NCBI GenBank assembly: GCA_043823315.1
Contig: JBDRAU010000027.1
Coordinates: forward strand, 1 to 36,209
Direction of reading: 5' to 3'
Length of the DNA: 36,209 bases
Origin: a bacterium
Lineage (GTDB): Bacteria > Patescibacteriota > UBA1384 > DTJR01
A program made the translations under genes and the position numbers. Shown in pieces: positions 11,363 through 14,449 of the stretch. The notes beneath the pieces were generated by a model. That model did no database searches and was not told where the DNA came from. It saw only the letters and a program-made list of their open reading frames with translations. Position 1 is the stretch's first letter. Each line of letters begins with the position of its first letter.

Positions 11363-12028
11363 ATGATATCAAAAAAACAAGCCCTTATCAAAGAACTTAA
11401 ACGTTCCAGCCAACCCGTTTTAATTGCTGACGAAGGCGATTATGATTGGGGTGCTTTGATAGCTGAAAATCTACTTATAAAGCAGGAAGCTCACAATAAA
11501 TTCGAAGCCTCGGAAGGTGTTGAGATTTTAAGGGGGGTTCTAAAAGATCTCTACATGAAACCAATAAGCTCTTCTTTAAAATTGTTCGTGATAGGCTCTA
11601 CGGAGCTCCTCAAGAGAGAACAGGCCAATACGCTTCTTAAACTACTCGAGGAGCCACCCGTTTACCTTAAGGTTGTCTTAATAACAAAGAACCTCTCTAA
11701 AGTAATAGATACGATCAAATCAAGGTCGAAAATCATCATAATGCCAAAGACAAACTTACCTTACGATCGTGAAAATAGTTTTATAAACCTGCTCAGCGGT
11801 TCGTTCAAGAATTATTCGGATGAAATTGGTAAACTCGAAAGAGGCGACTTTACGAGGCTGCTTTTAAATGGTATTGAAGAAGTTAAGAAAATAATGTTAA
11901 ATAAAACTGGCCTTGATGTGCTTAAAAAAATATCCGTAGCTATCTCAAAGGTGGAAAATACAAATGTTAACTACAAGCTAGTTGCCGAAGAATTATTTAT
12001 TTATTTTAAAAGTAGAAGAGTATTATGA
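11363..12028 (+). CDS. holB: DNA polymerase III delta-prime-like clamp-loader subunit (short)
   Basis: Motif ANTLLKLLEEPPVYLKVVLIT...TIKSRS. The start was moved to MISKKQ because the upstream part of the tracked ORF overlaps the divergent gene. Confidence 0.6.
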   Translation: MISKKQALIKELKRSSQPVLIADEGDYDWGALIAENLLIKQEAHNKFEASEGVEILRGVLKDLYMKPISSSLKLFVIGSTELLKREQANTLLKLLEEPPVYLKVVLITKNLSKVIDTIKSRSKIIIMPKTNLPYDRENSFINLLSGSFKNYSDEIGKLERGDFTRLLLNGIEEVKKIMLNKTGLDVLKKISVAISKVENTNVNYKLVAEELFIYFKSRRVL

Positions 12029-12549
12029 TAATTTATCCTGCCATAATTTTGTTTTTGCTCGTTGCGGGATTTGTAATTGTTTATCGCAGGGCATATCTGG
12101 TAGAGAACGACGAAGAACTCAAAGATCAAATTACATCTGTCGACAAACAAGACAAAGTAGAAATTTCCCAAAGTGAGATAAATCCCTTTGAAGAACAGGA
12201 GGAAAATTTTACCAAGGCAGAAGAACTCTTTAAAAAGAAACAATATATTTCTGCCGAGCGATGGTATATAGAGGCGGTAAAAAAGAATCCCAAAAATGGA
12301 GTTATTTTTTCGAGATTGGCTGTAATTTATCTGGAGCAAAAAAGCTACACCGATGCGATAGATTCCCTCAAAGAAGCGCTAAAATTAAATCCTGGGAGTG
12401 CCGTAAATAATTTCAATCTTTCCTTTGCTTATAACTCGATTGGTGATTCCAAGGAAGCTGTTCTAGCTGTTAAAAAAGCAATTAAGTTAGATCCTAAAAA
12501 TAAGAAATATAAAAAGTGGCTCCAACAATTAAAGGTCAAACCGTTCTAA
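12025..12549 (+). CDS. TPR-repeat protein with an N-terminal TM helix
   Basis: IIYPAIILFLLVAGFVIVY followed by TPR-like repeats (AERWYIEAVKKNPKN, YTDAIDSLKEALKLNPGS, SKEAVLAVKKAIKLDPKN). ATGA overlap with holB. Confidence 0.7.
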   Translation: MIIYPAIILFLLVAGFVIVYRRAYLVENDEELKDQITSVDKQDKVEISQSEINPFEEQEENFTKAEELFKKKQYISAERWYIEAVKKNPKNGVIFSRLAVIYLEQKSYTDAIDSLKEALKLNPGSAVNNFNLSFAYNSIGDSKEAVLAVKKAIKLDPKNKKYKKWLQQLKVKPF

Positions 12550-12624: not shown

Positions 12625-12713
12625 GCCGATATAGCCCCGACGATCGTAGCTGTCGGGGTCCCGACCAGAGCGTCGGGACTCAGATTCCAGGGGGATCCTT
12701 CGGTTGGTAGAGT
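12625..12713 (+). other. Interrupted 5' fragment of a Thr-type tRNA (acceptor strand plus D arm) carrying GC-hairpin insertions
   Basis: GCCGATATAG | hairpins at 12635-12658 and 12659-12678 | CTCAG | 20-nt insert | TTGGTAGAGT. Compare the intact GCCGACATAGCTCAGTTGGTAGAGC at 13446. Confidence 0.5.
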
Positions 12714-12724
12714 CCTGTTTTTTT

Positions 12725-12799
12725 GCCAGCGTAGCTCAGTGGTAGAGCAGCACTTTTGTAAAGTGACGGTCGGGGGTTCGAATCCCTTCGCTGGCTCCA
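12725..12799 (+). tRNA. tRNA-Thr (anticodon UGU), CCA encoded
   Basis: GCCAGCG TA GCTC AGTGGTA GAGC A GCACT TTTGTAA AGTGA CGGTC GGGGG TTCGAAT CCCTT CGCTGGC T CCA (75 nt, with a 27:43 mismatch). Confidence 0.9.
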
Positions 12800-12945
12800 G
12801 ATTTCACCGATTGGGGCTTGCCCCAAGCGGTGAAAGATTTGGAGACACGAGAAGATTCGAAGGCCGGAGCAGCTTGGCTGCGAGGCGGGGTCGACGGCAA
12901 AATCAGCAGATTTTGACCGGTGACCAAATCCCTTCGCTGGCTCCA
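12800..12945 (+). ncRNA. tRNA-3'-linked structured element, copy 1 (novel family; ends in a second copy of tRNA-Thr(UGU) positions ~58-76 plus CCA)
   Basis: Starts GATTT directly after the CCA. It has three hairpins and the invariant blocks TCGAAGGCCG, GCGAGGCGGGGT and GTGACC, and ends in AATCCCTTCGCTGGCTCCA. Confidence 0.6.
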
Positions 12946-12964
12946 AAATGAGCTGAGTAAAAGT

Positions 12965-12998
12965 AGGTCGTCCCGCCACGGCGGGACTATCGGCTCCA
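12965..12998 (+). other. Orphan tRNA 3' fragment whose acceptor strand matches the 5' fragment at 12625
   Basis: AGGTC + hairpin GTCCCGCC-ACG-GCGGGAC (in place of a T arm) + TATCGGC T CCA. TATCGGC is the exact complement of GCCGATA at 12625-12631. Confidence 0.5.
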
Positions 12999-13006
12999 GA
13001 TGTCTT

Positions 13007-13050
13007 GCCGGGTTGGTAGAGTGGTCAATTACATCCCGCCGTGGGCGGGA
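13007..13050 (+). other. Orphan class-II-like tRNA 5' fragment (acceptor plus D arm) followed by a GC hairpin
   Basis: GCCGGGT TG GTAG AGTGGTCAA TTAC A, then TCCCGCC-GTG-GGCGGGA. No matching 3' strand (ACCCGGC) was found nearby. Confidence 0.35.
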
Positions 13051-13061
13051 CGCCTCTAAAA

Positions 13062-13328
13062 ATGTATTATACATATATATTAAAAAGTAAAATCGATGGA
13101 AGTTATTATATTGGATCAACTTCTTGCTTGAGAGAAAGGGTAGAAAGACATAATTGCAAGCATGCTGGGTATACTGCGAAAAAAGCACCTTACAAACTAG
13201 TACATTTTGAAAAATTTCTGACGCGTTCGCAGGCCGTTAGTAGAGAGAAAAAGATAAAATCATACAAAGGCGGCGAAGCATTTAGGAAATTAATTTGCTG
13301 GAGTAGCGAAGTGGTCAAACGCATCTGA
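13062..13328 (+). CDS. Small GIY-YIG nuclease family protein (URI domain); its 3' end overlaps tRNA-Tyr by 32 nt
   Basis: MYYTYILKSKIDGSYYIGSTSCLRERVERHN...KKIKSYKGGEAFRKLI shows the GIY/YIG motifs. The start was taken at Met-8 of the tracked ORF. Confidence 0.75.
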   Translation: MYYTYILKSKIDGSYYIGSTSCLRERVERHNCKHAGYTAKKAPYKLVHFEKFLTRSQAVSREKKIKSYKGGEAFRKLICWSSEVVKRI

Positions 13329-13383
13329 CTGTAAATCAGACGGCCTTGCGCCTTCGGGAGTTCGAATCTCTCCTCCAGCACCA
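13297..13383 (+). tRNA. tRNA-Tyr (anticodon GUA), long variable arm, CCA encoded
   Basis: GCTGGAG TA GCG AAGTGGTCAAA CGC A TCTGA CTGTAAA TCAGA CGGCCTTGCGCCTTC GGGAG TTCGAAT CTCTC CTCCAGC A CCA (87 nt). Confidence 0.9.
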
Positions 13384-13385
13384 TT

Positions 13386-13436
13386 GCCGATGTAACTCAG
13401 CTTGCCCCGCCCATGACAGGCGGGGTGAAGTAGAGT
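13386..13436 (+). other. Orphan Thr-type tRNA 5' fragment with a GC hairpin in the D loop
   Basis: GCCGATG TA ACTC AGC TTG [CCCCGCC-CATGACA-GGCGGGG] TGAAGTA GAGT. Its acceptor strand is complementary to CATCGGC at 13637-13643. Confidence 0.5.
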
Positions 13437-13445
13437 AAACGATAA

Positions 13446-13521
13446 GCCGACATAGCTCAGTTGGTAGAGCGCGATCATGGTAAGATTGAGGTCCGCGGTT
13501 CGAATCCGCGTGTCGGCTCCA
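13446..13521 (+). tRNA. tRNA-Thr (anticodon GGU), CCA encoded
   Basis: GCCGACA TA GCTC AGTTGGTA GAGC G CGATC ATGGTAA GATTG AGGTC CGCGG TTCGAAT CCGCG TGTCGGC T CCA (76 nt). Confidence 0.9.
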
Positions 13522-13647
13522 GATTTATTGTAAATAAATATTTGGAGACGACAGGATTCGAAGGCCGCAGCCGCGACGGCGGCGAGGCGGGGTCGAGAGA
13601 TTTGCTAGCAGGCAAATACTCGTGACCGAATCCGCTCATCGGCTCCA
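13522..13647 (+). ncRNA. tRNA-3'-linked structured element, copy 2
   Basis: Same block order as copy 1. It ends in CGAATCCGC TCA TCGGCTCCA, which differs from the adjacent tRNA at 3 acceptor positions. Confidence 0.6.
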
Positions 13648-14098: not shown

Positions 14099-14172
14099 AG
14101 GCCCTTGGTTAAACGGTATAATGGCGGTCTCCAAAACCGCAGTCAGAGGTTCGACTCCTCTAGGGCCTGCCA
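14099..14172 (+). tRNA. tRNA-Trp (anticodon CCA), CCA end encoded
   Basis: AGGCCCT TG GTTA AACGGTA TAAT G GCGGT CTCCAAA ACCGC AGTC AGAGG TTCGACT CCTCT AGGGCCT G CCA (74 nt). Confidence 0.9.
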
Positions 14173-14315
14173 GATTTTTGCAACCACCGGAGGTGGGTGC
14201 AAAAATATTTGACGACCAAGGAGTCGAAGGCCGGAGCGAGTGAAGACGAGCGAGGCGGGGTAGCGAGTCGCGCCAGCAGGCGCGAACTTGTGACCGACTC
14301 CTCTAGGGCCTGCCA
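14173..14315 (+). ncRNA. tRNA-3'-linked structured element, copy 3
   Basis: Same block order as copies 1 and 2. It ends in CGACTCCTCTAGGGCCTGCCA, identical to the last 21 nt of tRNA-Trp. Confidence 0.6.
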
Positions 14316-14449
14316 TATGTTGAACGAGTTCCACCTTGTTGGGACGAGAGAAGACAGGTGCGTCCGGTAATTGACGCTTCTGCAATAATACGACGTAGTC
14401 GATTTTGCAGAAAGGAATACTAACCGGACCAATATGATTTTTTAACAAA

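Follow-up and report, generated by a model that had tools for sequence, protein, structure and literature searches.

Nested tRNA gene fragments and a small three-way-junction element in a Patescibacteria tRNA cluster suggest repeated insertion

Split and permuted transfer RNA (tRNA) genes are found in Nanoarchaeota and red algae. Rickettsia palindromic elements and the REP-like miniature inverted-repeat transposable elements (MITEs) are short palindromic repeats, and the OMEGA guide RNAs of TnpB and IscB (omega-RNAs) consist of a structured scaffold followed by about 20 nt from the flanking target. Islands and prophages with tyrosine integrases insert into tRNA and transfer-messenger RNA (tmRNA) genes, where the gene is rebuilt and the displaced fragment is left as a direct repeat (PMC4383910), and an attachment site (attB) in the T loop is one example (PMC1762012). 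SegB of phage T4 is a free-standing GIY-YIG homing endonuclease encoded in a tRNA gene cluster (PMC2330249). Here we compare these systems with a tRNA cluster of a bacterium of the Patescibacteria, or Candidate Phyla Radiation (CPR), in which broken halves of tRNA genes bracket intact tRNA genes, and in which three intact tRNA genes are directly followed by small elements predicted to fold into a three-way junction. The cluster lies on contig JBDRAU010000027.1 of GenBank assembly GCA_043823315.1. We refer to the whole stretch analysed, 36,209 nt read on the forward strand, as the window; all coordinates are those of the window unless a locus is named, and L-numbers denote the loci compared with it.

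In our interpretation, to which we assign a probability of roughly 75%, the region began as a simple cluster, Thr-Tyr-Thr ... L33-Trp, in a Candidatus Berkelbacteria genome and has since accumulated a pile-up of selfish insertions. Comparison with related loci identifies three kinds of insert: a tRNA with an element of ~90-150 nt, a GIY-YIG nuclease gene fused to a new tRNA-Tyr, and GC palindromes. The same comparison shows each broken half to be an end piece of a resident tRNA gene, displaced when a replacement for the same tRNA landed inside that gene and split it.

The gene just upstream of the tRNA cluster (12025-12549) encodes a tetratricopeptide repeat (TPR) protein, the homologues of which are named Candidatus Berkelbacteria. 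With this gene as synteny anchor, contigs encoding TPR homologues provided eight usable syntenic loci. The cluster in L121 (57% amino acid identity in the TPR protein) is clean, running Thr(UGU), 7 nt, Tyr, ~80 nt, Thr(GGU), membrane protein, L33, Trp and ileS without any tRNA fragments or elements. L117 (94% identity) has an intact tRNA-Thr(UGU) (GCCGATATAGCTCAGTGGCAGAGCAACTGTTTTGTAAACAGTAGGTCGTCAGTTCGAATCTGACTATCGGCTCCA), the spacer GACGTCTT and an intact tRNA-Tyr (GCCGGGTTGGCAGAGTGGTCAATTGCA), and L124 (65% identity) has an intact tRNA-Thr(GGU), GCCGATGTAACTCAGCTGGTAGAGTAACTCC...CCGCTCATCGGCTCCA (GCCGATG..CATCGGCTCCA). Thus, uninterrupted progenitors occur at the same site for all three genes: Thr(UGU) in L117 and L120, Thr(GGU) in L124, and Tyr in all relatives examined. 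Because relatives carry intact genes where the window has halves, the matching acceptor strands of the halves are inherited from single former genes, as the remains of one gene each and not as a selected pairing.

A preliminary, sequence-only reading of the window had described two pairs of halves with exactly complementary acceptor strands, and its sequence statements on the first of these (pair A, tRNA-Thr(UGU)) proved exact at every position. On the 5' side, GCCGATATAG (12625-12634) is followed by back-to-back GC hairpins (12635-12658 and 12659-12678), CTCAG (12679-12683), a 20-nt insert (12684-12703) and TTGGTAGAGT (12704-12713), and the fragment stops in the anticodon loop. Once the inserts are removed, it aligns with the intact L117 tRNA-Thr(UGU) in 31 identical columns, and its upstream flank is syntenic. 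The 3' relic shares 33 identical columns with the same L117 gene. A GC hairpin, GTCCCGC-CACG-GCGGGAC (12970-12987), sits where its T arm should be, followed at 12988-12998 by TATCGGC + T + CCA, the exact complement of the 5' acceptor strand 363 nt downstream. An 8-nt spacer (GATGTCTT; GACGTCTT in L117) then leads into the start of a tRNA-Tyr, as in L117. The break point is the anticodon loop (CCTGTTTT on the left, GTAAAAGTAGGTC on the right), and pair A is left without most of the anticodon arm. Between the halves lie a different tRNA-Thr(UGU), of the GCCAGCG type, element 1 and ~11 nt. Alignment to the relatives thus shows that a cassette consisting of a new Thr(UGU) and element 1 with its tail landed in the anticodon loop of the old Thr(UGU) and split it. 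The GCCAGCG-type gene occurs with the same element in L118, where the 3' half of pair A has been lost and the inner tRNA and element remain, and the gene type occurs alone in L125 and L126.

For the second pair (pair B, tRNA-Thr(GGU)), the sequence-only reading had noted a fragment whose partner strand does not match the intact tRNA beside it, which was borne out. The 5' side (13386-13437) reads GCCGATGTAACTCAGC..[CCCCGCC..GGCGGGG]..GTAGAGTA and the 3' side CATCGGC-T-CCA (13637-13647), with an intact tRNA between them that has GCCGACA/TGTCGGC. The 5' piece matches the intact L124 tRNA-Thr(GGU) at 23/24 positions vs 18/24 for the adjacent intact window tRNA, and the last 21 nt of element 2 (CGAATCCGCTCATCGGCTCCA) match the L124 gene at 21/21 vs 18/21. 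Because the match to the L124 gene exceeds that to the adjacent tRNA, pair B is nt 1-26 and nt 56-76 of an older Thr(GGU), the only parts left, upstream and downstream respectively, of the new Thr(GGU) and element 2; nt 27-55 are missing. Homologous modules of fragment and hairpin are present in L117 and L125, and L117 has a gene identical to the new window Thr(GGU), there with no element behind it.

A third orphan piece (13007-13033) had been described as another 5' piece followed by a GC hairpin. The hairpin is there, but the piece is the start of a tRNA-Tyr and not of a tRNA-Thr: it is identical to the L117 tRNA-Tyr at 24/27 positions vs 19/27 for the window's own tRNA-Tyr. The 17-nt hairpin that follows (13034-13050) takes the exact place of the 17-nt anticodon arm of the old Tyr. 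Downstream is an open reading frame (ORF) for a small GIY-YIG nuclease, whose stop codon is inside an intact tRNA-Tyr that differs in sequence from the GCCGGGT-type Tyr of all relatives examined. Of the old tRNA-Tyr, nt 1-27 are thus retained upstream of a GIY-YIG gene fused to a new tRNA-Tyr. The same layout of tRNA 5' fragment, GC hairpin, GIY-YIG ORF and intact tRNA was found in 10 metagenome contigs among the matches listed. As with SegB, the nuclease gene directly adjoins a tRNA in a tRNA cluster and is associated with replacement of the neighbouring allele. In contrast to SegB, it is chromosomal in CPR bacteria and not carried by a phage, and its cassette leaves a duplicated or foreign tRNA 5' fragment upstream. 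Acting as a homing nuclease, it would cut alleles that lack the cassette and not its own, for which the divergence of old and new tRNA-Tyr (19/27 over the fragment) is indirect evidence only. Other ORFs were seen next to tRNA genes in the relatives: in L117 (1942-2666), a nuclease-like 221-aa ORF with only weak helix-turn-helix matches ends inside a tRNA-Trp of a different type, and in L120 (4730-5195), a PD-(D/E)XK ORF (PDDEXK_5, E 7.5e-19) ends 4 nt before tRNA-Tyr.

Nested replacements of this kind are also present at other loci. In L042, a new tRNA-Ile flanked by 13-nt inverted repeats lies in the anticodon loop of an old tRNA-Ile, and in L124 the anticodon loop of a GCCCACG-type gene contains a new Thr(GGU). 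In L118 (6680-6860), nt 37-55 of an old Trp have given way to a new tRNA-Trp bounded by perfect 13-nt terminal inverted repeats (TCCCTCACCCTTA/TAAGGGTGAGGGA); the old gene is broken at the anticodon loop and resumes exactly at C56 of the T loop. Like Islander-type islands, these CPR inserts target tRNA and tmRNA genes, with junctions inside the gene, either in the T loop between T55 and C56 or in the anticodon loop (pair A of the window, L042, L124 and L118). The host gene is rebuilt, and a direct repeat of 19-21 nt marks the far end, with the tail of element 2 equal to the old gene at 21/21 positions. The inserts differ from such islands in being 90-150 nt (the element) or a few hundred nucleotides long (the tRNA cassettes) instead of kilobases. 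The element has a conserved, covarying, RNA-like fold and no integrase gene in or near it (no tyrosine or serine integrase is encoded, the elements of 125-150 nt having no ORF), and the nested cases deliver whole replacement tRNA genes and not just a 3' part.

Table 1. Positions of tRNA genes, proposed relics, elements and the nuclease gene in the window. The labels old, relic and replacement follow the interpretation given in the text; R1 is the covariance model of the three-way-junction element.
Feature	Position	Strand	Details
5' relic of old tRNA-Thr(UGU), GCCGATA type	12625..12724	+	nt 1-10, two GC hairpins, nt 11-15, 20-nt insert, nt 16-~33
Intact replacement tRNA-Thr(UGU), GCCAGCG type	12725..12799	+	ARAGORN and Rfam, 66.8 bits
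Element 1	12800..12945	+	GATTT, variable hairpin 12802-12835, ATTTGGAGAC; core from P2 5' strand 12853-12859 to GTGACC 12920-12925; tail 12925-12945, exact copy of last 19 nt of tRNA; R1 73 bits, E 1.8e-20
3' relic of old tRNA-Thr(UGU)	12957..12998	+	3' part of anticodon loop/stem, variable loop AGGTC, GC hairpin, TATCGGC-T-CCA
5' relic of old tRNA-Tyr, GCCGGGT type	13007..13056	+	nt 1-27, 17-nt GC hairpin 13034-13050, CGCCTC (start of variable arm)
GIY-YIG nuclease ORF	13062..13328	+	88 aa from ATG; Pfam PF01541, E 9.3e-15, 55.1 bits (cut-off 22.6)
Intact replacement tRNA-Tyr(GUA), GCTGGAG type	13297..13383	+	ARAGORN and Rfam, 63.9 bits
5' relic of old tRNA-Thr(GGU), GCCGATG type	13386..13445	+	nt 1-16, D-loop insert with GC hairpin 13405-13425, GTAGAGTA (to nt 26), linker AACGATAA
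Intact replacement tRNA-Thr(GGU), GCCGACA type	13446..13521	+	ARAGORN and Rfam, 64.7 bits
Element 2	13522..13647	+	GATTT, AT hairpin, ATTTGGAGAC; core from P2 5' strand 13554-13560 to GTGACC 13622-13627; tail 13627-13647, 3' end of old Thr(GGU); R1 76.2 bits
tRNA-Trp and element 3	14099..14315	+	tRNA 14099-14172 (ARAGORN and Rfam), element 14173-14315; P2 5' strand 14220-14226; GTGACC 14290-14295; tail 14295-14315, exact 21-nt copy of tRNA 3' end; R1 79.1 bits

The sequence-only reading had judged the fragments unlikely to be chance and had offered three explanations for them. Chance is indeed a poor account: at the same position, relatives have intact tRNA genes to which the fragments and the flanking sequence align base for base, and the window contains 6 seven-bp GC hairpins vs 0.28 expected from shuffles. 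Of the three explanations, scars of repeated insertion or gene conversion gains support from the uninterrupted progenitors and from the clean cluster of L121. The other two were long-range processing stems, similar to rRNA processing stalks, and split-tRNA-like halves; in both, the outer halves and inner tRNA would form a functional nested RNA, in the one case to bracket the mature tRNA for processing and in the other to join the halves. Exact 7-nt complements in two pairs speak for such an RNA, as do L029 and L034, which share a layout of 5' fragment with GC hairpin, intact tRNA and element with tail. However, the complementarity is not maintained across relatives. No complementary heptamer was found within 900 nt of the 5' fragments in L117 (GCCAGCG), L118 (GCCGATA; GCCGATATAT) and L125 (GCCGAGA), intact single genes replace the halves in L117 and L124, and in other CPR genomes an upstream 5' fragment is recognisable in only 6/60 element-bearing tRNAs. 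As in split tRNA genes, separate DNA segments hold the 5' and 3' parts with complementary acceptor strands, but here the halves of neither pair sum to a complete cloverleaf: no anticodon arm is present in the outer molecule, and pair A is also missing the T loop, with a GC hairpin in place of the T arm. Nor are the halves conserved or the sole source of their tRNA, as an intact gene for the same tRNA lies between them and relatives have single intact genes. The GC double hairpin is, moreover, a general insertion element seen in unrelated contexts, including apparent protein-coding sequence. The missing partner strands, the loss in L118 and the 6/60 count remove both the processing-stalk and the split-tRNA readings, and we regard a functional nested RNA as extremely improbable.

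Fragments and repeats could also have arisen without any mobile element, by local tandem duplication of tRNA genes with random decay and slippage. It is true that tRNA arrays do duplicate, and the inner and outer copies in L029 and L034 are nearly identical. In the window, however, the inner and outer types differ at each site (GCCAGCG/GCCGATA, GCCGACA/GCCGATG and GCTGGAG/GCCGGGT), and breakpoints recur at the same tRNA positions, namely the anticodon loop, nt 26/27 and the boundary between T55 and C56. A core of ~90 nt is common to separately named CPR groups, next to ~15 tRNA types and tmRNA, and one cassette contains a nuclease gene. Duplication with decay is accordingly a very unlikely explanation, and we retain the pile-up of selfish insertions as the preferred one.

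The GC palindromes behave like a widespread MITE-like family (short, gene-less and mobile) that occurs in dead tRNA pieces, judging from their sequence and contexts. All five YCCCGNC..GNCGGGR hairpins of the 36-kb window lie within 12635-13425, in such pieces. The double hairpin of pair A, CCCCGAC..GTCGGGG TCCCGAC N4-8 GTCGGGA (12635-12678), is found in at least 120 metagenome contigs (L127-L246), in intergenic DNA, in tRNA 5' fragments (between G10 and C11) and in apparent dnaK coding sequences (L148 and L149), usually after TAG, AAG or TAA. Among the matches listed, with flanks inspected, ~30 copies follow the TAG (U8-A9-G10) of a tRNA 5' fragment that shortly precedes an intact copy; insertion between G10 and C11 of an intact tRNA gene would presumably inactivate it. 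The GC hairpins are thus short, non-coding, palindromic and multicopy in unrelated contexts. They share with Rickettsia palindromic elements and REP-like repeats their short palindromic form, many copies and varied contexts, but belong to a separate sequence family. The double hairpin strongly prefers the site after the TAG of tRNA genes, and single window hairpins substitute whole tRNA arms of equal length, as where the 17-nt T arm of the old Thr (GTCAGTTCGAATCTGAC) has given way to an 18-nt hairpin (GTCCCGCCACGGCGGGAC) at 12970-12987. The arm-replacing hairpins at 12970-12987 and 13034-13050 keep the flanking stem-end bases of the dead tRNAs. GC hairpins may also be emptied versions of cassettes flanked by terminal inverted repeats, such as the L118 tRNA-Trp. 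We considered whether the double hairpin is the left end of the three-way-junction element and rejected the idea: it occurs in many unrelated contexts, and among the matches listed no metagenome tRNA adjacent to a hairpin has an exact strict core within 300 nt downstream, a comparison that misses diverged copies.

The element that follows the intact Thr(UGU), Thr(GGU) and Trp genes of the window appears to represent an undescribed, highly structured family of ~100 nt, distributed CPR-wide among the matches. Literature searches turned up no account of these elements. Each of the three tRNA genes is directly followed by GATTT, a variable hairpin, a short conserved stretch, the core, and a copy of 19-21 nt of a tRNA end; element 3, behind tRNA-Trp, lies outside the span covered by the sequence-only reading. 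The core folds as a three-way junction. Helix P2 pairs 5'-(T-stem-like)-A-N'-UCG with C56-G57-A58-N59-U60-(T-stem 3' strand), and this partner strand is formed by T-loop positions 56-62 of the copied last 19-21 nt of the tRNA. Junction strand J1 is GAAG; a GCC/GGC helix with a bulged G and tandem G.A pairs leads into hairpin P3; and J2 is GG. P4 consists of GGUCG/UGACC with an invariant G.U, 4 bp, an invariant bulged A and ~6 bp, with a loop that is often AGCAG.

Several lines of evidence support this fold. RNAalifold recovers the GCC/GGC helix, the base of P3, and P4. Across 74 sequences, 90.2% of cells are paired vs 75.2% in shuffles and at most 44% in slid registers, and double-sided changes in paired cells number 362 vs 114 in shuffles. 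The P2 pair opposite N59 is A-U in 33 cases, U-A in 13, C-G in 8 and G-C in 7, and in 58/65 loci UCG is preceded by A and then the complement of N59. The P2 strand fits its own tRNA with a median of 7 contiguous bp vs 3 with swapped partners. In minimum free energy (MFE) folds, all three window copies form P3 and P4, and elements 2 and 3 also form P2, which completes the junction (z -2.9 for the MFE three-way junction of element 2). G.U pairs outnumber A.C in the element stems (174 vs 47), so the tRNA-sense strand should be the folding strand. In seven Saccharibacteria loci (L003, L010, L062, L069, L073, L106 and L107), an extra hairpin with the conserved loop GCAAACUGCUUUGC stands immediately before P2, and the functional unit may thus exceed the three-way junction.

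No known family accounts for this core. A search with Rfam 15, including hammerhead, twister, pistol, hatchet, hepatitis delta virus (HDV)-like, tmRNA, T-box and HEARO models, returned only tRNA at the gathering score, and at E<=10 nothing covered the element core in the window or in the Saccharibacteria copy L017. By inspection, the hammerhead motifs CUGANGA and GAAA + UH are absent from the junction strands, and the conserved strands do not fit the hammerhead, hairpin, HDV-like or twister ribozyme cores. Protein coding was rejected: the minus strand reads through in the three window copies, but length differences in P3 and P4 are not multiples of 3 (87-146 nt) and the stems show covariation. 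We also looked upstream of the core for remains of a tRNA body (identity 4.62 vs 4.56 of 12 in shuffled partners) and for a long antisense to the acceptor strand (3.72 vs 3.50 of 12), and found support for neither. The element is superficially similar to OMEGA guide RNAs, with a conserved structured scaffold at its right end and then ~20 nt equal to the target. However, there is no TnpB or IscB gene nearby and no Rfam HEARO match, the 'guide' is paired to the element's own 5' strand, and the rebuilt tRNA would itself be a target.

We scanned one genome per species with the pattern TCGAAGGCCG-N8-32-GCGAGGCGGGGT and obtained 116 loci. Genuine copies were recognised in 82 of them, the remainder being chance matches in GC-rich genomes without the GTGACC end. 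Among the 80 of the 116 matches listed, genuine copies belong to Saccharibacteria, Paceibacteria, Nomurabacteria, Kaiserbacteria, Berkelbacteria and WS2 (all Patescibacteria/CPR) or to unclassified metagenome-assembled genomes (MAGs). Covariance model R1 has 3 matches in the window, 8 in the Berkelbacteria relatives and 109 in the 82 loci. A same-strand tRNA lies <=260 nt upstream in 65/87 element copies, with Leu, Gly, Arg, Asp, Phe, Val, Glu, Trp, Met, Ile, Pro, Ser, Lys, His and Thr as partners. Among the other 22 copies, five follow confirmed tmRNA genes, several are truncated at a contig end or have an upstream tRNA or tmRNA 3' end, and a few have no recognisable partner.

In the window and at many CPR loci the tail begins at C56 as an exact copy of 19-21 nt. 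It runs to the end of the gene as encoded, and CCA is present only where the gene encodes it, which argues for an origin at the level of DNA or of the primary transcript. An origin from tRNA-primed cDNA was rejected, as in genomes with CCA-less tRNA genes the junction and tail also have no CCA. A phage origin was likewise rejected, no copy of the element having been matched in IMG/VR viral contigs. Among the syntenic relatives the element is at Thr(UGU) in L118, at Tyr and, as a variant copy, at Trp in L120, at Thr(GGU) in L122, and at Tyr, with a variant at Trp, in L125. It is absent from L117, L121 and L124 (where the Trp site is empty), and degenerate or truncated copies are found in L125 and L126.

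Our best guess is that the element is a protein-less, T-loop-targeting selfish element with an RNA fold under selection. Having no protein gene, it would spread by recombining over the segment from T loop to 3' end that tRNA and tmRNA genes share, following the logic of tRNA-targeting islands, in which the gene is rebuilt and a displaced 3' fragment left. Entry with DNA taken up by naturally competent bacteria is conceivable, and the folded RNA, or a folded single strand, would be the object of selection. More tentatively, and still as a possibility below even odds, the element may be a new functional nucleic-acid structure in one of two forms: an RNA or folded attachment strand that homes the ~130-nt element to the T loop, by pairing of its 5' strand with T-loop positions 56-62 of almost any tRNA or tmRNA gene, or a Patescibacteria-wide switch of tRNA and tmRNA 3' maturation based on pairing with a decoy. 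Saccharibacteria are reported to be culturable and naturally transformable (PMC10187176), which would make both ideas about the element directly testable.

A number of observations weigh against a mobile element. Clustering of the ORFs that lie no more than 2.5 kb from 83 loci showed no enrichment of a recombinase, reverse transcriptase or other mobility gene, so that the proposed mechanism of spreading stays a conjecture; the recurring neighbours are housekeeping genes only, with GIY-YIG genes near just 3 loci, and neither an autonomous version nor a linked mobility gene emerged from these clusters. The repeat that flanks the element extends past the end of the tRNA or tmRNA into a downstream hairpin or trailer in L062 (4578-4830) and L030 (minus strand, 980-1200), and the tail can come from a tRNA other than the neighbour, as in L030 (a Val gene with an Arg-like tail) and L103 (Gly-GCC with a Gly-UCC-like tail). 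Thus, neither a simple carried-tail nor a simple displaced-tail model fits every case. Element 2 may have been lost from L117 instead of gained in the window. Most element loci come from metagenome assemblies, in which repeats may be misassembled. In L082 (minus strand, ~1090-1200), a run of N separates two identical copies of the element, which suggests assembler trouble with tandem elements, and some MAG contexts may be unreliable. Finally, copies at the same tRNA show compensatory changes, from GCC/GGC to GAC/GUC in L118 and to GGC/GCC in L120, as well as a P4 change from G:C to A:U between the window and L118 copies. Together with the retention of only the P2 part of some tails, these changes point to selection of the structure in place, which suits a host-useful RNA no worse than a purely selfish one, and a role in regulation or processing is therefore kept as a serious rival.

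In that account the element is a cis-acting RNA useful to the host, a switch or processing module for the 3' maturation of tRNA and tmRNA, and the halves are still debris. The segment 5' of the core would pair either with the T loop and T stem of the real tRNA, which misfolds, or with the decoy copy, which closes the junction, and the junction would bind a ligand or protein that chooses between the two. The wobble bias of the sense strand suggests RNA, the junction nucleotides are invariant with strong covariation, and the P2 strand is tailored to each tRNA. Where the tail has decayed, only the P2 part is kept (L057, L085 and L120), which agrees with the compensatory changes among same-tRNA copies. 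Against a host function, the element is patchy even among close Berkelbacteria, the same tRNA having it in one genome and not in the next, and copies in L125 and L126 are truncated. Complementarity to the tRNA ends with P2, and terminator-like hairpins precede many copies. We consider a host-useful RNA rather unlikely and prefer the selfish, T-loop-targeting element.

If mobile, the element would be among the smallest site-specific elements known, working without its own protein; if regulatory, it would be a new control of tRNA supply in minimal-genome bacteria. Both readings would make it a widespread family of structured RNAs, undescribed and linked to the elbow of tRNA. CPR tRNA clusters are battlegrounds in which whole replacement genes are nested in older ones, and this nested replacement and the CPR-wide element are of more interest than the fragments themselves. 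For annotation, the lesson is that fragments with perfectly matching acceptor strands can be pure history.

Terminator and promoter scans of 12.5-14.5 kb gave nothing over shuffled expectation. Small hairpins with the conserved loop GGTGGAA/AGTGGAA and covarying stems recur around nested tRNAs and inside variant elements (L042 6040-6130, L125 5790-5830 and L126 4700-4740), and may be another small repeat family. The ileS leader of the window (14330-14440) contains the motif CTGCAATAA...TTTTGCAGAAAGGAA. In L124 (2590-2660), a similar segment of ~75 nt interrupts a dead tRNA in its variable-loop region, and it may be a regulatory leader or another mobile piece.

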